DNA of 64,000 nt from Raillietiella orientalis (taxonomy: Eukaryota), in NCBI GenBank assembly GCA_036172245.1, contig JAYWIR010000015.1:3162001-3226000 (forward strand), in the 5' to 3' direction. Both the position numbers and the translations under genes were made by a program. Shown one piece after another: positions 4,262-29,084 of the stretch (the stretch's first letter is position 1; the number at the start of each line of letters is the position of its first letter). Under the pieces are notes generated by a model. The model worked only from the letters and a program-made list of their open reading frames with translations. It did no database searches and was not told where the DNA came from.

Positions 4262-11351
<7,090 letters not shown>

Positions 11352-11699
11352 TTATTAGGTTCACAATTTTACATATATATTTTCGAACAAACCTGGAAAA
11401 CAAAAAACATACAGGCAATAATACAGATTTCATATAAAATATAAAAATAAAATATGCACATGAACACATATCTACCTTTAGAATTAAACCATAAGAAACG
11501 CTATGATAAAACAAATCCATAACTTACGTGAAATCTTTACTTGTAAAAAAAATCGATTAAATACATGAATTCCAACACTAATGAAAAACACAACTCTGTT
11601 TAACCTATCATATACACAGGATTATCTGTTCCACTTCATAATTATGCCACTTCATGCAAGTAAAACAGCTACCTTACTTCCACTATACATCTTAAAGTA

Positions 11700-12020
11700 T
11701 ATTAATGCGCAGCAGTTTTAACTCTACTTGAATTTTATTCAGTGGACACAGCGTAAAATAAACCAAATCATTCATCTCCTCCTGTGATCAAACACTTTTG
11801 CTAATAACCCGGTCTATTTATTTATTTTCATAAAACGAAAACAATACTACCGACAATGTAAGAAGTTTACGTACTACATTATTTTCTCAGTTCTCCGGTC
11901 AGTTTGGGTACCTAGACTGTCACCTTTGGCACACTTTTTTTAACTCTTATTTTCACAGACTGCCAAATCGAAGAGAAAAATTGCAATAATTTCAACACAA
12001 ACAAATAGACATATTTAGGT
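11700..12020. promoter_or_regulatory. Probable bidirectional promoter / 5'-UTR region of DHX38 (-) and the UTP23-NAXD unit (+)
   Basis: Lies between divergent genes and has locally more CpG. A minus-strand 5'-UTR intron candidate runs 11527-11393 (GTAAGT...TTCCAG). A plus-strand intron candidate runs 11898-11958 (GTCAGT...TTTTCACAG). Confidence 0.4.
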
Positions 12021-12049
12021 ACATTAATTAATTTGATCAATTGAGTTAG

Positions 12050-14500
12050 GGCTTTCTGCAGTGACTGCTATGTTCTCAAGGTGCATGATGACAACAAAAA
12101 AAGCTATAAAATTATCGAACCACTTTTCCAAGCTTCTCTCAGTTAATAACAAAAGTTAAGGAGAAATTTCAAGTACAAAATGCTTGTTTTGAAGCTATGT
12201 AATTTTAACCTCAGAAAAAAATACATTGTTTCATACAGAGCTTTATATTACGAACAAACCATCGGTTTCGTTTACTATATAAAGCATATGTTAAATTTTG
12301 ATCTGTGATTGAAAAACTAATCATGCTCTAATTAGCAACCATTCATTTACGAATGGTTATCAGCTATTGCTAATGTATGAGTAGATTACTAATAGATTAC
12401 TAAACAATCTCCTGCCTATGAAGAGTACAACAGAATCTACTAAGTATAGTGAGGCTAAAAAAACGAATACCTAGAGAAGAGTAAAGTATGATGAGGATAG
12501 TATGATCATGCTAATTAGGACTTGATCAAAGCAGTCTTTATTTGTGCATGTTGAGCTGCTTTAGATGTGGCGAAAATATTCATTTAATGTGTACGGTATG
12601 AAGGTGGCATGACGCCCTGATAATTTAAAAAAAAAAAAAGAAACCAATAAGGCTGATGATCACTATGAAATTTTAGGAAGTCATATTCCTCGAGAATTAA
12701 TAAAACACTGCTGCAAACAGTTACTCGGGGTAACTACGGGTTCGAGGTGCCTTGAGATAAAATCACAAAGAAAATCATGTCAGATGATATGAAAAACCGA
12801 TCATCAGCATAACAGCTCTAGAGGAGTAGATAGAAAATTCGGAAAAAAAGAATCGATTAATGAATATTAGGGAAACTTCACAATGCGGTGTTTGGGCTGC
12901 CTATCGGATACAGAGACGTACTACAGCAGTTTTCTGATCGAATAAATATTGAAAAAAGATATAATTAACAAGCAACAATGGCTTTTTAAAGAGGCTTAGT
13001 CTACTGAAGAAAAGTGTAGAGACCCAAGCATGATAAGAAATGGAATAAAAATATCAATAATGATACCCGAGTATCATCAACAACTATCTATTTGATGAAT
13101 AGAAGGGGATTTAGGAGTGCGTAGATCTGTACTTGCTTCATATAAGAGGACATTCTAAGAGGTTACTAGAAACACTCTTTATCCTCCCTTGCAAGCAGAT
13201 AGCGAAAAAATTACACAGTTCGTTGTGAGAAAACCAGTGAGCTTAAGAAAATTTGATGCAATCACTTAAAAACTAGTAAATCAAGCAGATAATAAATATA
13301 CTGGACTTGGTCAAAATATCCAAGGATATCCAAGGAAGGAGTTACAAAGAAATAGTCACGTATGAGTTACTTTAGCTGCGCTACGTTAAATAAAAACACA
13401 ACTAACTTCTTTGATGTGATTGGGGATTGTTGATCATGGTTGCAGTTATAAGAAATATCAAATAGAAATTTCTCAGCACAATTAAAAATGCATTTGCGAC
13501 TAATTGCATCAAAGAAAGCATGATGAAAGAGGACAAAATCGACAAAAGGATGCAGGAAACCAGGGACTTTTGCAATAAAAAATGCAGTTGTTCAGACGAG
13601 GATTTCAAGATCTTGAACTGCTTTCTAAATATTGGAAACAATTTTCTACGTAAACTTCTAGCAAAGATCGTGAGGGAATCTGAAAACATTGTGGAAACCC
13701 CGTATTCGTCTAATGCATTTGTTGAGTTACTGGACGAGATATGAAGTTCAAAGTGACCGTTCTTGTACATGCGCGATTCTGATTTTGATAGTGCTGAATG
13801 CAAAGGTAAATTGGAAGGTAAATCAATTTGAGGTACATTCCTTGGTTTGATTGGATTTGCGATAATTTGTCACCATCTGATCATATCGTGAAACAATTGA
13901 TCGCTTTTTTGACAGATCATAATTACATGTTTTTACCCATACGGATCATAAGAATCATGAATGAAAAGATGAGACTCTCTGTTTCGCTTTGCTGAACATT
14001 TTTGATAGTTCCCGTTGTACTGATGAAACATGAAGTAAGCAGATTTGGAAATGTGATCAGCAACCGAACTTATTGGGTAGTCAAGTTTCAGTTTTGTAGT
14101 TTTGTGCTTGGCGAGGATGCACGCAAGGGTACCAAGCAAACTTAGCTAAAGATCCTTCTTGTAAAAGAATGTGGGATATCGTGTTTTTCAAGAGTGAATA
14201 TTATGTGTTTTCTTCAGAAGAATGTAATTTATAAGCAACAGTTATGATTATGATATTATAAGACCTTTGCTGCAATATTGATATAGGAAATGTTCCTAAT
14301 GCTGAAGACTCCCACATGGAGTCATTGTTTTAGATCATTATTGTGCTTTGGTCCATGAAAAGCATGTATTTGGAAACTTAGTAAGTGGTAAATAAAGTGA
14401 CTTTCAAAAAGTTAAAAGATCAAAAAAAGAATTCACTTGATATAGGGAAAGGTTTCTATAAAGCTAAGTTCTCAACTGTATATTGGGAAAAAGTTGTTCC
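12050..14500 (+). mobile_element. Decayed, AT-rich L1/Tx1-like ORF2 (RT to zinc finger)
   Basis: Collinear remnants across frames: VKYDEDS (~12485, YADD-like), YEILGSH (~12670), GKKESIN/ILGKL (~12850), IYLMN/EGDLGV (~13100) and DPSCK..CG (~14150). Confidence 0.5.
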
Positions 14501-17256
14501 ATGTGCTGCTTTGAAAGCCTCCTAAGCTTCTTTTCAGCCATATTGCATGATACTTCAGTTGCTAGGGTTCCGGAAATCAGAACATTCATCTGAGTTTTAG
14601 AAAACAATGATTGTGTTGACAGATCTAAATGAAAGCATGGGTGTCTGAATGTTAATATATTGATCTGAAAAGAAACTAAACAAGCATTAGAGGCAAAAAT
14701 GCAAGTGTGAATTAGACTCCTGAGAAGGACTGTTTCCTTATAATGAATTTGTAAACAAAAAATTGGAATTGGGTAAAAATGGGGAAAGACTGTGTTTACT
14801 CTTTAGTAATGTGGGCACAAGTTATTTTTACATTTCAGTTCTTTAGAGGTGATGCTGGAAGTACATTTGTACGTTCGGTTTTAGATATAAACAACGTAGT
14901 GTTGAAGGTTGTAAGGGTCAAGTATTGCTGCTTTTCTAATTTGGTGGAGTCAACGATTTGGAAATTTTAAATTTTCTATTGCTGCAAAGTATTATTCTCA
15001 TGAGAAACTGAAATCACTTGATTAAGGTTAAAGAAAATAAAATAGCTTATTATTGCCGCATTTGCAGCAAATTGTAAGCTGAAAAAATGTCAGTGACAGG
15101 TTACTTTGCTACCTTGTTTTAAATGACCAAATGTATATCAAGTCAAAGAATAATTTTTTAAAATACACTCAGTGAAGCAGGGTTACAGATGTATTTAATG
15201 AATATGAAAAATGAGTTTTTGTACAGTTTTCAATTAAACCATGTTGCAAATCAGAGAGCAAGTACGAGTCTTACATTAATTTTTAGTGTAGCATTATCTG
15301 ATTTGGCTATTTAACCTTTGGTGATGCAAAATATTTACCTTAACATTCTACTACTGAAATGTCACTTTTGCAGTTATACCTGTTTACATATTTCCTTCAT
15401 ACTGTTTTTTTTTTCTTTTGCAATTAGGACTTTAACAGTTATGCAATTTTGTTTGGTTTATAAAAACAGAATGTACAATTTTACACAAGCCACCAAACTT
15501 TGCAAATTGCATGGCATTGTTATCTTGAATATCATATTCGTACATAATTCTTTTAAATCATGAAGTGACTTGAATATTGACTTGTAAAGTTAGGTTAGGT
15601 TAGGTTGTTGCAGTCTTTGCCTGTATTGTATTGAAGCAGTTTCCTCCGTGATAAATTTCAATTAGGAATTCAAAGAAAAAAAGAAAGCTTATTCTTCTCA
15701 TTTGAGTGTACAAGGTATGTAAAGTTATTTACGATAATCTTTTTATAGTGAAATCAAACAGTATTCCACATGCAAAGTAGTTATATTACTGATTAACTTT
15801 ATCTCTGAGATACTTGGTAATTACTTTGGAATTCCATGTTGCTAATTAAGAAACTTCATTTAATGGTATTCTATTTTGATGCTAAACTGTGCAACAAAAT
15901 GGAATGAAATATGAGATCCTTACTGTTTTCCAAAATTCCCAAGGTAAGAGATCTTAAGTTAGTCTTGAATTATTTAGTCTTGTCATTGGCATTGGCACAG
16001 TAGGTAGGTGAATTTGCTGAAAAGGTTTTGTAAATGACTTTGGTTCTTGATCCAACTTCATGTCAAAAGTTTTTTCTGTTTCTATTCGAATTCAGTTCCT
16101 GAAATTTAAACTGATCAGTTTAAATCTAATCATGCATCATCATAAAGGTTTGCATGTTTTCTTGAATAACTTGAATGTTTTGAATTTGACTAGTGAATGA
16201 AAGTGATCTTTTTGAAGAAATTCCATGAATTCAAATGATATGAAACTAGTGATTGCTCCAGGCATATATGAGAATTTCAGGGAAGTCTTTGTCATAAAGA
16301 AAGGATATATTATGTTTGTTTACTGAAGTGTGAAAAATAAATGTAATATCTAATTAACAATTGTGTGGATGTGCAGTACAGTTACATATGTGTGGATAGA
16401 AGATTGTGAATAGTTAGAATGGCGAATATCTTTTGGTTTTTAACATTCCAAATGGATAGTCGGATTTGCATCCAAAAACAATGTGTTCTGTTTTCACATC
16501 TGAAGGCAGTCATTTTGATACAAAAGTTTGATTATCCATTTGCCTCACACACTATGCTGTATTGTACGATTATTGTATAGTATCTCATGTTTTGATTATC
16601 ACCATTGTAAACTGCTGAATGTAACTGATGCATATAGCATGTTTACGTATGCATTTTCATAATATAAACTATACACTGTTTTTGGAATGATGCTGGTGAA
16701 TTTATGAAAACTTGCAAATAATTTCAATATGTAGTCAGAAACACATGAAATGACCATGTACAACCACTGTAGATGTATGAATGTGCATTTTAAAAAATCT
16801 GGATTTATCTTTTTTTTGATTAATTTTGCAACTTTTGTGTAATTTGCATGTATTTACGTTTTCATAAGTTACTGTTTTGTCATTGTCTTATTGCAGGATA
16901 AATCAGAATTGAATAATTCATTACTGTATGCATGTTCATAGCTGAGTTTTTGAAAAAGAACATTATGTTTTATTGGGCAAAAATTACAATTCAAAGCTTA
17001 TCATTCCTCAGAAAATTTATTGTTTTTTTTTAAAGATCTAGCCTCTTTGTAATTAACTGAGAATCTGCTTGTAGATGGTTTCTGTTATGAATTCGTTAAT
17101 TATCCATGAAAAGGGTATGGAGAAAGATTTGCTTTAAATTGTTCAAAGGATTTCAGCATACATTTAACAGTAATGAGTAATTTGCCAAGATGGCATTTCT
17201 CAATTCTCATTGAGAAAATTGACTAGTTTTTCTGGAATTCCAAAGTAGAAAAGAAA

Positions 17257-18590
17257 ATGAAAATTAAAAGATCCAAAAAAGTGCATCAATATTTGGAATA
17301 TTATAAGGTGAATTTTGGCTTTCGGAAACCATATCAGATTTTGATTGATGGGTCTTTTTGTCAGCAAGCTTTGCAGGTATGTTTTTTTTCATTTAGCTGT
17401 ATGGGATGTGTACATAATTGCTTTATACTTTTGTTATTATAAACTTGGTCAACCTTTTAAAGATATTACAGCATTAACTACAGTATGTAGTTAATTGTAT
17501 TGAAGCATTTTGCAAATGATTTTGAAACTGATGGAAGATTTTAAGTAATCAAAGGATTTGAATGTTAGATGATTAAAACATTTAGTATTAAAATAGCAGA
17601 ATTTTTGGAAATACTCATGAAGTGCCTTGAGTAAATGTTTTCAGCAATTATTATAAAAAAAATAAGATTGCTATAATGTGGTTGAACCATTGTCTGTGTT
17701 AACTGAATATTCATTGAGATAGCTTAGGTGTTTTTTTTTTCTTTTTTGTTTTTTACAGAATAAAGTTAATATTAGAGAACAGTTACCCAAATATTTATCA
17801 GGAGAGGTGAAGTTTTTAACAACAGCTTGTGCTATAAAGGAATGTGACTCTTTAGGTAAATTTCTCAATATTTCTGTTCATAAAATCAAAAGAAATGTGA
17901 TAAACATGTTCATGTCTTTTGTTGCTAGGTTCTTTGGCGCATGGGGCTTGTATGATTTTAAAACACTTTACTCTTCATAAGTGCAATCATGAGATATGCA
18001 GCAATGCCTCTGAATGTTTCATGGCAATGATTGGAAGGGATAATTCTTCCAGGTTTTTATCATTAAGTGGGAGATTAAATAAAAATTCATATTACAGATA
18101 TTTTATTGCAACCCAGGACATGGAGTTACAAAGAGCATGCCAAAACATTCCAGGTGTTCCTGTGATCTACTTGCATCATAATGCACCAACTCTTCAAAAA
18201 GTATCGATTTCAACTAAAGAAAAAGTTAGTGTTATAAATAAGAAGAAGTGAGTTCCTCAGTCCTCTACAACTATATGATAGAATATGACTTGACTAAAAT
18301 ATCGGCTTCATGATTTGTCTCTTCATCCTAGAATATCGTTATCAGATTTGCAAAGGGATGCTGTCACATCCTTAAGAAAAACTATCTGGGGTGATATTCA
18401 AGAAAAGTCTTACAGGCCAAAGCGAATAGGTGGACCTAATCCATTGTCTTGTAAGAAGAAGAAGATTACAGAAAACAGTCCTTGCAACAGCACACAGCAG
18501 TCAAAAAGAATTCGCAAGAGAATTCGAGTAGCAAAACATGTAAAACAAGAATTTGCTAAACAAGAGCAGCGGGGCAAGGGAGAATTATAG
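17257..18590 (+). CDS. UTP23: rRNA-processing protein UTP23 (PIN/Fcf1 domain), exons 17257-17376, 17759-17855, 17929-18052, 18098-18247, 18332-18590
   Basis: MKIKR..NFGFRKPYQILIDGSFCQQAL, YFIATQD..L...IPGVP.IYL and basic C-terminal GPNPLSCKKKK. GT-AG introns keep the frame. Confidence 0.94.
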
Positions 18591-18632
18591 GAAATACTTG
18601 TCAGTGTATTTGTGCTTATGTTTTCTAGGTAA

Positions 18633-19520
18633 ATGCAAATGTTGAAACCTCCACGTGACTTGATATTGAATACACTGATGAGTGTCTCTCCGGGACACAA
18701 GGGCATGGCAGGAAGAGTTGCCATTGTAGGTGGCAGTGAAGAATATACTGGTGCTCCCTATTTTGCAGCAATTTCAGCTCTTAAAACAGGCTGTGATTTG
18801 GTTTATGTATTTTGTGCCAAGGGTGCTGCCATTCCTATTAAATCATATAGCCCAGAATTGATTGTGCTTCCTTTATTGGATTCAGATGATCCAGTTGAGA
18901 AACTGAAATCATGGATACCAAGGCTTCATTCCTTAGTGATTGGTCCAGGTTTAGGAAGGAGCCTTCCCTCCAATATTGTGCTGGATATTCTGATGCTAGT
19001 TCGAACTGCAAACGTACCAATGATTTTGGACGCTGATGCCCTTTCTTACATGTCTTTAGGCTCGAATGTAATTCGGAATTATTCAAAAGCTGTTTTAACA
19101 CCAAATGCTGTTGAATTTGATCGTTTGGAACAGTTGTTAGGAGCAAAAGTGCTTGATGTGCCATTAGAGCAAAGAGTCTGCAATGCAGCACAACTGTTAG
19201 GTGTCACTGTGGTACGCAAAGGAGCTACCGATATTATCTCTGATGGCCAAAAGATATATCAGTGTGAGCTGGAAGGGAGTGCACGACGATGTGGAGGACA
19301 AGGAGATATACTTGCTGGTAGCATGGGAACTTTAGCCCATTGGGCATTTGCAGCTCAAATGCCCAGTACCAATCCTCTTTTGATAGCTGCTTATGTAGCG
19401 TGTGCATTGACAAGACGTTGCAATTGTTTGGCCTTCTCTGAGCTTGGAAGAAGTACAACAACATCTGACATGATTACCTTTATCAGTCGGTCATTTAAAG
19501 AGCTACCAGTTTTAATCTAA
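18633..19520 (+). CDS. NAXD: ATP-dependent (S)-NAD(P)H-hydrate dehydratase (NAXD/CARKD, YjeF C-terminal family), single coding exon
   Basis: HKGMAGRVAIVGGSEEYTGAPYFAAISALKTGCDL, IKSYSPELIV, IGPGLGR, DADAL, LTPNAVEF, KGATDIISDG and RRCGGQGDILAG are characteristic family motifs. Confidence 0.95.
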   Translation: MQMLKPPRDLILNTLMSVSPGHKGMAGRVAIVGGSEEYTGAPYFAAISALKTGCDLVYVFCAKGAAIPIKSYSPELIVLPLLDSDDPVEKLKSWIPRLHSLVIGPGLGRSLPSNIVLDILMLVRTANVPMILDADALSYMSLGSNVIRNYSKAVLTPNAVEFDRLEQLLGAKVLDVPLEQRVCNAAQLLGVTVVRKGATDIISDGQKIYQCELEGSARRCGGQGDILAGSMGTLAHWAFAAQMPSTNPLLIAAYVACALTRRCNCLAFSELGRSTTTSDMITFISRSFKELPVLI

Positions 19521-19644
19521 ATGTTGCCAGTTTCACTTATGCTGCATCTAGATAAAAATCATTCTAATATTATGAAACCAACTGCTTCATGTTGACTTAT
19601 ATGATTAATCAGAACACCTTCATGGAACATACTTATTCTTAGAG

Positions 19645-19650
19645 AATAAA
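19645..19650 (+). terminator. Probable polyadenylation signal of NAXD (possibly shared with UTP23)
   Basis: AATAAA 125 nt after the NAXD stop, followed by GT-rich sequence. Confidence 0.55.
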
Positions 19651-23939: not shown

Positions 23940-25400
23940 CACCCGTCTGGACATCGGCATGAAGCGAAAGGCCAACCTATGGAATGGAGTACTCCTTCCT
24001 AAGGTGCTCTTCGGAGCAGCCTCGCTAGAATGAAGGAGACCACCCGAGAAGTGGAAAAGCTGCAAAGGAAAACACTGTGGGGCCACTACCGCCCAAGAGT
24101 TCATCTGAAACCCCTGTGTCGTCCCAGAGAAGAGGGCGGTTCCGGGATGAAGTCGCTTGCACACTCCATGGAAATCATGGATTCGCGACACATCCTGGGT
24201 ATCGCTACTCACTGGGATGACTGGCCGTACGCGGCGCATAGGGCCTACGCGTTGTTATTGAACAACTCGAAAGGCCTGATGACTGCGCTGCTAGACCGAG
24301 CAGGAGAATGGATCAACATCGACCCTACCTGGAGGAGGAAGCAATGGCTGGTGCGCAAGCACAAGATGAAGATCGTGCCGAAAAGCAGGGAGCTCTGGAA
24401 GGAAGAATCCATCCTGGTGATCCCGTGGATGCTTCCGGTCCCTCCGGACACGAGAAGCAGGATCTACCAGCGGCCCAGAGTTACCCTGCAAAGAATCCAG
24501 GAATGGCGACGAGGAGATACCTACATCACACTCGCATACTTCGGTATATAGAGATGATGCTAGGCAGATTCACCCATATGACCCGCGAAGTGTGGATAAA
24601 CCACAACGACTTCGCGTGGTCTGGGGTAACCAAGATGAACCTCCGGAAGATTATCAAGGACCAGGACCAAGACACCTGTCCCCTCCAAGAAGCCGCCGAT
24701 CGCTACGGGAGTGACAGGATCAACCTGTTGGCGATCGGCACGACGCTCTGGAGTAGTGACCTTCCGCCGGACACCCAGGACAACCTCCTGATGTTCTATC
24801 ACGGAGGAATCCTGAGCGGGTCCAGGCTAAAGCACGACACTAGAAGACGGGAAGACGAAGACTGCACGGCATGTGGTGACATTGAATCAAGATTACATAT
24901 TTTGACGTGTCCCACATTGCTCCACGACTGGCTGATCCTGAAAAGGATCATTGGACTCACCACCAGCTCCACAATGGAGATCCTCGCTGGAATGTTTCAG
25001 GGAGATGGTAATGTTCCCTGCTACAATCCCATGGTGAGGATGACCATTACTCTCTTCATCACTGCCATACTTGTGCGGTGGTGGAAGATGAGGAAAGCCA
25101 GGGGAGCCGCACCCCCGATGGAGATCCTGCAAGGACTCATCAAGAGGGAAATCGGTATCAGGAACTGCGGACGAATTCACGCCTGGACGTACCGATTCAT
25201 CCTGAAGAGGACTGAGGACGACGCCCGGGACCAAACAACTGGAAACTCACCCTGAATGCAGAACTTGCGACACCCCAAGGACTTCCAAGTGAAAGTGTAA
25301 GGTATGAATGAGTAGTGAATTGTATGAATGGAAAATTGTAGTATGAATGTGATATAAAAAGAAAATAAATTTACCCCACCCCTTGTGGGACTTGGGGAAA
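23940..25400 (+). mobile_element. 5'-truncated L1/Tx1-clade non-LTR retrotransposon (post-RT region plus C-terminal zinc finger), two frameshifts, 16-bp TSD
   Basis: Peptides LDIGMKRKANLWNGVLLPKVLF, LWGHYRPRVHLKPLCRPREEGGSG, LWSSDLPP and CTACGDIESRLHILTCP. Identical ATTCGTGAAAATTGAA at 23924-23939 and 25401-25416. AATAAA at 25364. Confidence 0.88.
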
Positions 25401-26985
25401 ATTCGTGAAAATTGAATAAATTTTGTTGACGAGTCAAGTTATCTTTACAGAGTGGAAGCACCAAATTCAAGCGAAGAGCGCAATTTTCACGACTGTGTCA
25501 GCCGTGACGATGCGTGCCATGTATACCATGAGGAAACCATAAAGGGCTTTAAAATGAAAACTAATTTGTGAACACTTGACGAAAAGGATCAAAATTACAC
25601 GGGAGGATCCTCAAGGTAGTAGCAGAAGAGGAAGCAAACCACTGGTTGCAAAAGCTTCAACGTTGCGGCTGAGCTGTAACCTCGTAAAAAGCAAACTATA
25701 AACGGGGATAAAAATGAAAAGGATTTTCGTGTTGCAACGTACACAACTGCTGTTCACAGAAACACATGCACTGTCAGGAGAAAACGAACTTGTAAAATGA
25801 TAGCTGGAATGCATATGGAAAATTCGAAATTAACCTTTTCTGCCGCTTTAAGTTCTTGTCATTCCACCGTTAATTGATGCACCGAATGCTGAAGCATCCT
25901 ATGCAAGACGCTTCGGCAATCCCCAGGATGGGAGCAATTAAATCATTACGACAGTGTACTGCTACGGCGAGGATAAGAACGATAGTTCCGTAACGAATTA
26001 TACGAATGGAAGTGTTTCGAAAACGTAAAACTTGGAGATAAAATCAACTCGGAAATGCGACCATGAGATCAGCTCATCCGTCTTAAAATCAATGGGAGGG
26101 TAAAGGCCCGTTGATTCCAGCCAAGACTGACTTAATAATGGGTTATTACTAGATTACTCGGCGTGTGGTATTTACTTAATGAACGGTTAGTTTATGCAAT
26201 GAAGAAAAAAATACTTTATTACTTTAAAAAGATACTTTAAGCGATGTTTGGAAAAGCTGTGCTGAACGATACGGACGTTTGAACCAATAGGCTGGGTTTC
26301 CTCGTTCACTAACGTATGCAGGATAATTGTCAGTGATAGATTGCTTAGTTATTGTGAATGGAAGTCATTACTTTGACGTGCCCTTATTCATTACACACCC
26401 ACAATGTGGGCACGAACCACTTCAAAACGTCTAAATGATTTCGCATTTTCATCGTTTGCATGTTGCAAATTCACAACGATTGGCGTAATGTCACGGGAAG
26501 AATCGTTCCGTATTCTCTACGTGGTATGTATTCGGCAACGTGCACGTAAAAAAAAACTGCATTCAGCTTGCAGCACTGTCGCATGAGTTACTGTGCTTTA
26601 CGGTGAAAATACATTTACTGTCCATGTAAAATTGCTTCTTTACTAGAATGAGGAATCTGCAAAATGCTTCTCAGTTATCAAAAAAAATCAAAAAAGGAAA
26701 ATTTTTCTTAACAATGAAAAACTTTTATATAATGCCCATTTTCTCATAAATGATTCATCAATGAAGCAGCATAACTGTTAGCTTTTATAAAATCCGTCAT
26801 GGGACCTTCCAACATCTGGATGTTTGCAAGGATGGGCGTAAATTGATTGAAAACTTGAGTCTGGAGTAAGTTTTGAGATATGAATGCATGTAACCTCAAT
26901 TCTGACTGTTTAAATGCACAGAGGAGAAAGATTCTTGAACACATTTAAACATTTGCCTTGCCCATTAAAAGCTTCTGATTATGCC

Positions 26986-29084
26986 TCATGTCTTAATGCG
27001 TGGTTTTAATTCTTCATAACAGGAATGAAGAAAAATATAGTTCTTTTTCTGAGGGTTGTAGTATTCATGGCCCTGCAGAGAGCAATGGTATTGGGTTCTT
27101 AACTTGGGCTTACTCACCTTGCTCCAGTCATAGCTAACAGCATAAGCAAATATTTGTCCATTGGCATTGAAACAGCAACAGGTTATTGACTGCTCCATCT
27201 GTTCAGAGCTTTTCAGTTTAGTACGGGCATCCTTGTCCCAAAAGCTAAACCGGCCATCTGAGCCAACAGTGGTCAGAGTGCCATGTACTGGGTGGAATGC
27301 TATGTCATTCACCTGCAGGTTTCATCATCTAAAATTACTCAAAAAGACGTACTTACTGCAAAAATCTCCTGATAGCCATTTGCTATGCCGTTTGAGCGGT
27401 GACATTTAAAGGTAAAGTTATCCCTAGGATTCTGTACATTTACATATTGAATGGCCACCCGACCTTCAACACTGGCAACAGCAAAGCCAGTAGGTTCACC
27501 TCGTTTGTCAGCAAAGATTGCTATGGACCGGTGCTGATATTTCAGTGGAGATTCCATTTTCTTGAACTCATGAGGTTGGCCTTCTAGCATGTACACAATA
27601 ATCCCTCGACCAGCCACCCCTACTACTGCCATCGGATATTTCTATGAGAAGACAATACATGTGCCAGATCAAAAAAAACACCCACCACATCAGCACAGTA
27701 GCAACGTTCTGGCAAATTGATTACAAGAATCGGATTTGGAGTGCGTGTATCCCAGAACTAAAATAACATCAATTTTGATTCATCCATTGAATGTTATTAC
27801 TTTCAAAGTCTTATCCCAAGAACCAGTCATTAAGCAGGAATAGCTGGGACTTTTAATCCAGTGAACAGTTTTGATAGGGGCATCATGAGCAGCCACTTGG
27901 ATGTGCTGATTACTGCTCAGATCCCAACAGAATGCAGTTTTGTCACAAGATGCAGTAAATACTTTGGTACCATCCTATAGGGGAATTGTTTTAAAAGATC
28001 ATTGGATGCAAAACATGGTCGAAATATTTCATACATCACTCCAGCATGCATCCAGTACTGGTCCCTGGTGCATTTTTTGATCTTTAGGAATAGTCTGTCC
28101 TGTTTGTTGGACCTCCCAACATCTAACCTGATTACACAAATGTTTTATAGAAGCATTTTCAGAGAATAAAATATGCAAAAAAATATTAAAACAACTAAAA
28201 AATTACTGTGTAACATTATTAGAGAATAATCCAATGTTTATTTTTTGAATCCTGCCTTGCATTTTATCTTTCCTTATCTTTATTATTACTGATTGATACA
28301 TACTGATCAGCACTGCTATTGTAACTACCAACACTGTCAACATAAGTAAAATGCCGGAAATCACTCTTTGATATTGCATCTTAACTTTGAATTAATACGC
28401 TATAAGTAAACTGCAATACAATCATTTAACTGAACAACATGCAAAATTCAGTTCAAAGTGTCATTTCTTTAAAACAGATCAATCCATACGTTATCTATTT
28501 TATAGTTTTTTAAACAAAAACTTTCAGATTTCTCAAGCAATACTTATCCCTACATCAATAAGAATGTAGGAATTTATGTAAAAATTTCCTGTCAATAATT
28601 AGATGATTTTCTAATGAACTATAAAGTACATGCATGATAAACAATGTATAACCAATGCAACTACCCTATCTTGAAAAAACAAACTGACATGGGGCAAATA
28701 GAATTGTACACACATTCACAAGCATAACTAAAAGATTCATAAATCTCATCGTACATAGACATTCAATGTAAATATACATCGTACATTAAACAACAAAAAC
28801 TACAGCCAAGTTTTTCTCTGTCTAGGCCTATTTTTCCTAAGTAAATTAAAATTTAATTTTCCACATTAGTACAGATAGTACAGATAACTTCCTTAGTAAA
28901 TTTTTAAACTTACACAATTATCCCAACTGGTTGCAATTAAGAAATTATTTGATATTGTTGCAGGGCTAAAACAAAGCTTTGACACGGAATCTTCGGGAGG
29001 AGACACTACTTCGAAATCTTTCATGGGATTATGTGTTCCTGTCGTACCCCCAAAAACATAACTTCCCGTACTTGTACCAAACAT
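26986..29084 (-). CDS. RAE1: mRNA export factor RAE1/Gle2 (WD40), exons 29084-28914, 28127-28035, 27974-27801, 27757-27686, 27641-27357, 27312-27118, 27072-26986
   Basis: [91 protein letters not shown] and [12 protein letters not shown]. All introns are phase-0 GT-AG. Confidence 0.96.

Follow-up and report, generated by a model that had tools for sequence, protein, structure and literature searches.

The tight spacing of UTP23 and NAXD, together with the sequence signals around them, suggests that the two genes are co-transcribed as one unit. Both open reading frames (ORFs) lie on the + strand of the window (the entire 64,000-nucleotide stretch of DNA that was analyzed), and 42 nt separate the UTP23 stop codon (TAG, 18588 to 18590) from the NAXD start codon (ATG, 18633 to 18635) (Table 1). 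From the observed anatomy of the locus, the motif statistics, the CpG pattern, and the missing poly(A) hexamer we infer, with confidence that falls a little short of even, co-transcription, splicing at the junction 18628/18629 to resolve the transcript, and a leader supplied in cis or in trans. The operon-like or shared-leader arrangement proposed in the first-pass annotation gains indirect support from the missing hexamer, the splice signal, and a continuous CpG-poor block. Its description of the gap also stands. The spacing is exact to the base (18591 to 18632), the gap is U-rich (19 T, 10 A, 9 G, 4 C), the acceptor-type AG at 18627 and 18628 is 4 nt before the NAXD ATG, and G18629 is followed by a TAA (18630 to 18632) that directly precedes the ATG in frame. 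Elsewhere in the window, genes are separated by 270 nt (a convergent pair) or by several kilobases.

Table 1. Coordinates of features at the UTP23–NAXD locus (positions in the window)
Feature	Coordinates	Strand	Basis
CpG-normal zone, candidate site of a promoter or non-coding first exon	11000..14180	.	CpG o/e 0.69 (63 observed, 91.3 expected)
CpG-poor block, read as one historically methylated transcription unit	14181..19001	.	CpG o/e 0.12-0.26
UTP23 exon 1 (ATG 17257)	17257..17376	+	ORF and GT donor
UTP23 exon 2, donor TAG/GTAAAT	17759..17855	+	gene model, Fcf1 match
UTP23 exon 3	17929..18052	+	Fcf1 2.9e-16; PDB UTP23 chains 2.4e-07
UTP23 exon 4	18098..18247	+	gene model, Pfam profile match
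UTP23 exon 5, stop TAG 18588-18590	18332..18590	+	UTP23_sensor 1.7e-06
Inter-ORF gap, T-rich (19/42), without A[AT]TAAA	18591..18632	+	sequence, hexamer scan
Composite splice motif: pyrimidine tract (13/17) and TAG/GTAAAT, junction 18628/18629	18609..18634	+	motif scan
4-codon uORF (ATG TTT TCT AGG TAA) in the pyrimidine tract, abutting the NAXD ATG	18618..18632	+	sequence
NAXD (ATP-dependent NAD(P)HX dehydratase) ORF, 295 aa, single exon, intact	18633..19520	+	Carb_kinase 1.9e-48
Acceptor-like site (12/17 pyrimidines, TAG), 31 nt past the NAXD stop	19535..19551	+	motif scan
AATAAA, first canonical poly(A) hexamer past the NAXD stop (125 nt)	19645..19650	+	hexamer scan

The UTP23 model has five exons encoding 249 amino acids, with GT-AG introns of 382, 73, 45, and 84 nt. 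Its identity is indicated by matches to Pfam Fcf1 (2.9e-16), to the C-terminal UTP23_sensor (1.7e-06), and to PDB UTP23 chains (2.4e-07). NAXD matches Pfam Carb_kinase (PF01256; E = 1.9e-48) over profile positions 1 to 238 of 242, can be aligned over its full length with short NAXD isoforms, and is 48 to 53% identical to animal NAXD in a nine-sequence alignment (A1); its closest relatives are 48 to 55% identical at best. NAXD has every invariant column of that alignment, in which the query is itself one of the nine rows. An ORF this intact and conserved must be expressed somehow.

An intronless NAXD directly behind a gene with four introns might be a retrocopy that landed there with no functional link to UTP23, or the juxtaposition might be an assembly artefact. 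Either origin is very improbable. The ORF is intact with its invariant columns kept, there is neither a poly(A) remnant nor a flanking direct repeat longer than 7 nt, GC3 (0.31) matches that of the neighboring genes (0.32 and 0.33), as does CpG o/e, and the GFOD-like gene of the window is intronless as well. The window sequence contains no N, and no tandem repeat in it scored 80 or above.

Comparable pairs were not recovered from the sequences searched. A metagenome scan yielded two loci at 46% identity to NAXD, with an adjoining UTP23 match never better than E = 7.6. Among the best 120 of the 388 matches in a search for longer NAXD proteins there was no fused Fcf1–NAXD prediction; these proteins had PF01256 alone or PF13837 with PF01256. 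A broader search gave 17,735 matches at E<=0.001, and from the best 150 of these, 14 representatives were chosen that, judging by their length or the position of the match, had additional sequence next to the NAXD domain; Fcf1 was found in none of the 14. As both results come from the top-ranked matches, they are weak evidence on adjacency. The only literature found that mentions UTP23 and NAXD together, on sarcoidosis blood transcriptomics, is irrelevant by title and abstract.

The first-pass annotation had reported that the gap lacks AATAAA. The absence extends well beyond the gap: A[AT]TAAA does not occur on the + strand between 18083 and 18837, and the ATTAAA at 18837 is inside the NAXD coding sequence. 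The AATAAA at 19645 is the only canonical hexamer outside coding sequence that is available to both ORFs, and a co-transcript running across both would be expected to end there. The missing inter-ORF hexamer is weak evidence, however, because the GFOD-like gene also has no canonical hexamer within ~770 nt of its stop. The missing hexamer, the small inter-ORF distance, and a single CpG-poor block with no CpG-normal patch inside it would also fit a plain dicistronic mRNA that carries both ORFs, ends past 19645, and leaves the junction unused, with NAXD translated by reinitiation, by internal entry, or poorly. Drosophila annotations include roughly a hundred dicistronic loci. However, reinitiation after a long ORF, such as the 249 codons of UTP23, is inefficient, and leaky scanning to NAXD is excluded because UTP23 has many ATGs. 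The unique composite splice motif in the gap would also be left as a coincidence. We regard a plain dicistronic mRNA as unlikely, though still a serious contender.

The CpG landscape bears on where transcription starts. CpG depletion begins 3.1 kb before the UTP23 ATG is reached, at ~14.2 kb, and ends at ~19.0 kb. The CpG o/e ratio is 0.24 from 14181 to 17256 (17 observed versus 69.8 expected; P = 1e-10 against a flank baseline of 0.85), 0.26 over UTP23 plus the gap, and 0.12 in the 5' half of NAXD, versus 0.69 and 0.89 in the flanks. In the 600 nt upstream of the ATG the ratio is 0.17 for UTP23, 0.37 for NAXD, 0.84 for RAE1, and 0.57 for GFOD. Thus, neither UTP23 nor NAXD has a CpG-normal patch ahead of its ATG, unlike the neighboring RAE1, in a comparison with two promoter controls, RAE1 and the GFOD-like gene. 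A continuous CpG-poor block without a promoter patch fits one unit transcribed from a distal promoter, and transcription may start a long way 5' of the UTP23 ATG, within the CpG-normal zone that spans 11 to 14.2 kb. This zone contains TCAGTT motifs (11.9 to 12.0 kb) and the donor-like AGGTAAAT at 13804 and 13816. The CpG pattern is compatible with the distal start that the first-pass annotation had suspected at 11.9 to 12.0 kb, but that position is one point in a 3-kb zone. The depletion upstream of UTP23 could also stem from another unrecognized transcript or from a methylated repeat.

The same pattern argues against a promoter inside UTP23, which had been offered as a third option in the first-pass annotation and is now disfavored. 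Under that explanation, NAXD would have an independent promoter in the 3' end of UTP23 (intron 4, exon 5, or the gap), the genes would merely overlap, and the acceptor-like tract would serve a non-canonical poly(A) site of UTP23 as its U/GU-rich downstream element. The sequence 3' of the UTP23 stop is indeed GU/U-rich, the GFOD-like gene likewise does without a canonical hexamer, and an Inr-like TCAGTG is located at 18601 to 18606. The ATGs of exon 5 and the gap yield just short uORFs, of 5, 1, and 4 codons. However, the ATG depletion in exon 5 is not significant (3 observed versus 6.2 expected, P = 0.11), TCAGTG lacks the Y expected at the final Inr position, and TATA is absent at the proper distance. 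NAXD lacks a CpG-normal patch ahead of it (o/e 0.37, versus 0.84 before RAE1), and the donor half of the composite motif is left unexplained. An internal NAXD promoter is quite unlikely.

The gap carries a non-random splice-type signal. The NAXD ORF is preceded by TGTTTTCTAG, and the acceptor AG is fused directly to a donor-like hexamer, giving TGTTTTCTAG/GTAAAT (the slash marks the junction). The GTAAAT is identical to the donor of the predicted UTP23 exon 2 (TAG/GTAAAT, 17853 to 17861). In the AT-rich half of the window, scanned as 62 kb of strand sequence, the composite (Y)nYAG/GTRART has a single occurrence, compared with a mean of 0.06 in shuffled sequence. As for the acceptor half on its own, YAG after at least 13/17 pyrimidines occurs at 34 sites on each of the two strands of positions 1 to 31000 (1.10 per kb per strand), so that such an acceptor is expected by chance in ~4.6% of 42-nt gaps and in ~1% of cases within 10 nt of a given ATG. 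All of these splice-motif statistics are post hoc, and the AT of the donor-like hexamer belongs to the NAXD start codon. The gap acceptor scores as high as the real UTP23 acceptors, three of four of which reach at least 13/17 pyrimidines. Among the four genes with a definable ATG (GFOD-like, 3055; UTP23, 17257; NAXD, 18633; RAE1, 29084), NAXD alone has an acceptor of this strength (at least 13/17 and YAG) within 100 nt upstream. The acceptor that the first-pass annotation had described as orphan is present as a motif, but its fusion to GTAAAT was missed, and this fusion opens readings that were not listed there.

Translation into the junction constrains what could be joined to NAXD. Reading into 18629 gives GTA AAT and then a TGA in phase 0, xGT AAA TGC AAA TGT TGA in phase 1, and xxG TAA in phase 2. 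A UTP23–NAXD fusion protein made by cis splicing was considered and rejected, as any UTP23 donor joined to 18629 meets a stop within 0 to 9 codons. Because all three phases stop, NAXD could be served by a non-coding leader only, in agreement with the earlier claim that no coding exon can be fused in frame. A single ATG, at 18618, lies between the two ORFs; it is upstream of the junction and would be removed by splicing at 18628.

We propose that the junction 18628/18629 is a real splice site and that NAXD may be translated from its own mature mRNA, with a non-coding leader spliced onto G18629; this splicing would eliminate UTP23 together with the upstream ATG at 18618. The three-phase stop fits such a leader. 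By analogy with the cholinergic locus, the leader might be a first exon supplied in cis that UTP23 also uses, which taken singly is rather unlikely. This version would require one of the weak acceptors upstream of the UTP23 ATG, where the best YAG candidate, at 86 nt, has 10/17 pyrimidines and a 13/17 tract at 42 nt ends in GAG, with a TAG 12 nt further on. About as unlikely when taken singly is a spliced leader (SL) added in trans, by analogy with operons. The remainder of our confidence in the proposal carries no preference between the cis and trans leaders.

Two features of SL operons are found at UTP23–NAXD, the short same-strand distance (42 nt) and, as a motif, an unpaired acceptor close to the downstream ORF (13/17 and TAG). 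Several observations count mildly against the SL version. A UTP23 3' untranslated region (3'UTR) of 37 nt without a poly(A) hexamer would leave very little room for UTP23 3' end formation, and none of the three other genes has a comparable acceptor within 100 nt of its ATG. Gene-body-type CpG depletion also counts mildly against it. The text seen of PMC12460157 describes this depletion as lost in several trans-splicing phyla. The last such observation is that the GFOD-like protein is closest to arthropods: among the matches listed, every named one is from an arthropod, at 46 to 53% identity. In a tree of 52 rows (the query plus 51 of the 120 listed matches, 29 of them named and 22 unnamed), in which arthropods were the only groups sampled, the query joins at the unresolved base of these groups by a branch of 1.98, too long to place it. 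No described operons were found in arthropods, the group of the nearest protein matches, and the main text of a copepod SL paper does not contain the words 'operon' or 'polycistronic'. An Rfam scan of the window at gathering thresholds gave no matches.

The donor half of the motif permits two further readings. The junction may serve as a donor only, with exon 5 ending at 18628 and an intron from 18629 to ~19551, or to another acceptor, removing NAXD from the UTP23 mRNA. NAXD would then be nested in a UTP23 3'UTR intron and expressed from intron-retaining or separately started transcripts. Pairing 18629 with the acceptor at 19551 would excise the whole NAXD ORF (923 nt), and UTP23 would gain the AATAAA at 19645. 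The AG/GTAAAT is the same as the donor predicted for UTP23 exon 2, AGGTAAAT is found just four times on the + strand of 31 kb, and a branch-like TTAAT is located ~36 nt upstream of the TAG at 19551. However, with 2.63 such sites per kb, the acceptor-like site at 19551 has a ~28% probability of arising by chance and is not significant alone, a start 5' of 18629 would still be required for NAXD, and the pyrimidine tract would become a ~1 to 2% coincidence. We give a donor-only junction a slight chance.

In the second reading, a dual-specificity junction would sort one primary transcript into two monocistronic mRNAs, and at the motif level TGTTTTCTAG/GTAAAT is a juxtaposed (Y)nYAG/GTRAGT-like sequence of the kind that marks recursive or dual-specificity sites. 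As a 5' splice site, exon 5/GTAAAT would be joined to an acceptor near 19551, with NAXD removed as a 3'UTR intron; as a 3' splice site, the junction would accept a non-coding leader (cis or SL) to form the NAXD mRNA. Both mRNAs would share one promoter and one poly(A) site. This elaboration is decidedly unlikely, and we know of no described case of a gene pair resolved by a dual-use splice junction.

If the pair is co-transcribed, it would be a compact natural case of unrelated housekeeping functions, ribosome biogenesis (UTP23) and metabolite repair (NAXD), under one promoter. If an SL mechanism operated in an arthropod-like lineage whose gene bodies are methylated, operons would prove to be more widely distributed than is now known, and a dual-use junction would be a new way of resolving a polycistron. 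If none of these readings holds, UTP23 and NAXD are an ordinary overlapping gene pair.

Known systems resemble the locus in part. Insect dicistronic genes, such as stoned and Adh/Adhr, comprise two unrelated ORFs and are defined by RNA evidence. UTP23–NAXD, a pair recognized from its sequence, is like them in having two unrelated ORFs, a short spacer, and putatively one promoter and one poly(A) site; to our knowledge, a composite splice site between the ORFs is not part of their description. In the cholinergic locus (VAChT/ChAT; unc-17/cha-1), one promoter and a shared non-coding first exon that is spliced to alternative acceptors give rise to two proteins. The likeness lies in one ORF being intronless, an acceptor being needed upstream of each ORF, the leader being non-coding, and a single regulatory block. 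However, the order is reversed here, with a multi-exon UTP23 skipped to reach an intronless NAXD, the two genes are functionally unrelated, the upstream gene has no poly(A) signal of its own, and the shared exon is hypothetical.

The SL operons of Ciona, Oikopleura, a chaetognath, and Caenorhabditis elegans likewise have housekeeping genes tens of bases apart on the same strand, with an unpaired acceptor just 5' of the downstream ATG like that predicted for NAXD. The text seen of PMC7986045 gives intercistronic distances of <100 bp (median 1 bp) for Ciona, a cut-off of 60 bp (median about 31 to 33 bp) for Oikopleura, and ~100 bp for C. elegans. Such distances are measured between poly(A) site and acceptor, whereas the 42 nt of UTP23–NAXD is the whole span from stop to ATG, with no hexamer in it. 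In chaetognaths, 18% of genes are in operons enriched for metabolic housekeeping functions, according to an excerpt of PMC12460157. Unlike what is seen with SL operons, the three other genes of the window with a definable ATG, UTP23 among them, have no such acceptors, and, unlike several trans-splicing phyla as portrayed in that excerpt, the genome has gene-body-type CpG depletion.

The junction itself resembles the Drosophila ratchet point, for which an excerpt of PMC5126111 gives the consensus (Y)nNCAG/GTAAGT. Both juxtapose an acceptor and a donor. Known ratchet points occur in the interior of very long introns and are not visible in the mRNA, whereas the composite site described here is between two complete ORFs, 38 nt past one stop codon and 4 nt before the next start codon.

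The 42-nt gap between the reading frames of UTP23 (ribosome biogenesis) and NAXD (ATP-dependent NAD(P)HX dehydratase) combines a splice acceptor with a donor-like sequence. The first-pass annotation proposed an operon-like or shared-leader pair with an orphan acceptor, and on rereading of the window sequence all of its coordinates for this pair were correct. Its description of a U-rich gap without AATAAA also held: 19 of the 42 bases are T, and A[AT]TAAA is absent on the + strand from 18083 to 18837. The AG of TGTTTTCTAG occupies 18627-18628; after it come a single G, a TAA in frame with NAXD (18630-18632), and then the NAXD ATG at 18633. A donor-like GTAAAT directly joined to the 3' side of this acceptor motif, the same as the donor predicted for exon 2 of UTP23, had been overlooked.

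Features of the window, with window-relative positions
Feature	Position	Strand	Remark
GFOD1/2-like oxidoreductase gene, intronless, 387 aa	3055-4218	+	best named matches all arthropod
PRP16/DHX38 helicase gene, multi-exon	4491-~8000+	-	PDB PRP16 match, E 2.9e-95 for one exon
UTP23 exon 1	17257-17376	+	5-exon gene model
UTP23 exon 2	17759-17855	+	5-exon gene model
UTP23 exon 3	17929-18052	+	5-exon gene model
UTP23 exon 4	18098-18247	+	5-exon gene model
UTP23 exon 5	18332-18590	+	5-exon gene model
UTP23 stop TAG	18588-18590	+	read from window sequence
Inter-ORF gap	18591-18632	+	42 nt
NAXD ORF, 295 aa	18633-19520	+	Pfam Carb_kinase (NAD(P)H-hydrate dehydratase), E 1.9e-48
Acceptor-like TAG	19551	+	31 nt beyond NAXD stop
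AATAAA, first canonical hexamer outside coding sequence	19645	+	125 nt past NAXD stop
RAE1 (mRNA export factor) gene, ATG 29084	~26700-29084	-	start codon fixed

The UTP23 model (249 aa; GT-AG introns of 382, 73, 45, and 84 nt) is backed by Fcf1 and UTP23_sensor matches and by PDB UTP23 chains. The NAXD ORF can be aligned from its first residues to short mite and vertebrate isoforms of NAXD, retains all invariant columns of that nine-sequence alignment, and has best relatives at 48-55% identity. Judged from its sequence, NAXD here is a complete, intact, intronless gene that does not need an upstream coding exon. A UTP23-NAXD fusion protein made by cis splicing is impossible because the exon lengths are such that, whichever UTP23 donor is joined to 18629, the reading frame ends at a stop after 0-9 codons. 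This agrees with the earlier proposal that only a noncoding leader can serve NAXD. No fusion was predicted among the best 120 'longer' NAXD matches listed or in 14 long representatives picked from the best 150 listed. UTP23 was absent beside NAXD at both metagenome NAXD loci found (n=2), and the literature searched held no report of the pair. It is highly improbable that the genes lack any functional link, with NAXD a retrocopy or an artefact: the ORF is intact, its GC3 of 0.31 matches the 0.32-0.33 of its neighbours, and a poly(A) remnant and a target-site repeat are both absent.

YAG preceded by at least 13 pyrimidines in 17 positions occurs at 68 sites when both strands of 1-31000 are counted, a density of 1.10 per kb per strand. 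At this density, a gap of 42 nt would contain such an acceptor by chance in ~4.6% of cases, and one would fall within 10 nt of a given ATG in ~1%. Of the four acceptors predicted for UTP23, three score equally. Start codons could be fixed for four window genes (GFOD-like, 3055; UTP23, 17257; NAXD, 18633; RAE1, 29084 on the minus strand), and only NAXD has a comparable acceptor within 100 nt upstream. In the first 31 kb, the + strand carries four copies of the donor-like AGGTAAAT. A pyrimidine tract followed by YAG/GTRART has a single occurrence, at 18628, in 62 kb of strand sequence, against a block-shuffle mean of 0.06, a post hoc statistic in which two letters of the donor half are part of the start codon. 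A purely accidental origin of the composite motif looks unlikely.

CpG-poor gene bodies mark historically methylated transcription units in invertebrates. CpG o/e in the window is 0.27 for the GFOD-like coding sequence and 0.3-0.55 for the PRP16/DHX38 region, and 0.7-1.0 in nongenic flanks. RAE1, with a CpG-poor body (0.36) and a clearly CpG-normal upstream patch (0.84), serves as a control. One unbroken CpG-poor block runs from ~14181 to ~19001, with values of 0.24 in the 3.1 kb before the UTP23 ATG (17 observed versus 69.8 expected; P=1e-10 against a flank baseline of 0.85), 0.26 in UTP23 plus the gap, and 0.12 in the 370 nt at the start of NAXD. In the 600 nt that precede the ATG, o/e is 0.17 for UTP23 and 0.37 for NAXD, versus 0.84 for RAE1 and 0.57 for the GFOD-like gene, the only two control promoters. 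We read this pattern as one transcription unit starting within a CpG-normal zone of 11-14.2 kb, and neither ORF as preceded by an unmethylated promoter island. Upstream of UTP23, the block could instead come from an unrecognised transcript or repeat. The pattern speaks against a NAXD promoter inside UTP23, another of the arrangements first suggested, which we consider quite unlikely.

The AT-rich 3.1 kb at 14181-17256 is as CpG-poor as gene bodies and contains many ATGs up to 17191 and no Pfam-matching ORF; the UTP23 unit may have a 5'UTR intron here, or the stretch may be a methylated transcript that has gone unrecognised. Two tandem copies of AGGTAAAT, 12 nt apart (13804-13823, +), lie just inside the CpG-normal zone, ~370 nt upstream of the block, and could be the donor of a noncoding first exon.

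Elsewhere in the window, the GFOD-like and PRP16 genes are convergent, their ORF ends 270 nt apart. The named matches of the GFOD-like protein are all arthropod (46-53% identity), and in a tree of arthropod sequences (52 rows) its branch of 1.98, versus a median of 0.13, attaches at the base of the sampled groups, where the tree is unresolved. The animal's predicted GFOD-like protein comes closest to those of arthropods. In a patch of 49-54% GC, a pair of long ORFs (182 and 337 aa; 24003-25255, +) overlap and have no Pfam match; the C-terminal Cys/His pattern is reminiscent of non-LTR retrotransposon ORF2 tails. Composition breaks sharply between the first half (29-49% GC) and 31000-64000 (52-62% in 2-kb windows). 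The latter region (49-64% GC in 1-kb windows; CpG o/e ~0.6-1.2) shows long ORFs in each of the six frames, no obvious gene, no tandem repeats at a score of at least 80, and no Rfam match. The break may reflect a misjoin, a switch to another genome compartment, or a landscape of GC-rich repeats.

We tentatively favour, at somewhat under an even chance, co-transcription of UTP23 and NAXD resolved by splicing at 18628/18629. Transcription would begin in the CpG-normal zone, and the junction would be the splice site separating the two genes, with a leader supplied in cis or as an SL. A shared leader in cis would account for the same facts without an SL but calls for a hypothetical first exon, and for one of the weak acceptor candidates ahead of UTP23 to be usable; taken singly it is unlikely. 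An SL-resolved operon is unlikely to almost the same degree, if fractionally more so. The gap spacing and the acceptor both fit it, and passages in two papers describe housekeeping genes as abundant in operons elsewhere (PMC7986045, PMC12460157). However, it would leave UTP23 a 37-nt 3'UTR without a poly(A) hexamer, a point weakened by the GFOD-like gene, where the ~770 nt following the stop likewise contain no A[AT]TAAA. The three other genes also lack an acceptor close to the ATG. Furthermore, gene-body-type CpG depletion is present in this genome, and its loss is tied to several trans-splicing phyla in part of one of those papers (PMC12460157). In the main text of a copepod SL paper, 'operon' and 'polycistronic' have 0 occurrences (PMC4664967).

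An unprocessed dicistronic mRNA, which we rate as rather unlikely, would account for the CpG block and the absent poly(A) signal but would leave the composite motif to chance and require reinitiation after a 249-codon ORF. If 18629 were a donor paired with the acceptor-like TAG at 19551, the whole NAXD ORF could be excised. That TAG is expected by chance in ~28% of cases and is not significant alone; use of the junction only as a donor, with NAXD inside a 3'UTR intron, is improbable.

The composite acceptor/donor and the single CpG-poor block sharpen the observation on UTP23 and NAXD, and all five arrangements weighed are of already known kinds. The portion of a review that gives (Y)nNCAG/GTAAGT as the consensus of Drosophila recursive splice sites also names 'dual specificity' splice sites (PMC5126111). 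Like both kinds of site, as described in PMC5126111 and PMC8605326, the putative junction before NAXD has an acceptor fused to a donor.
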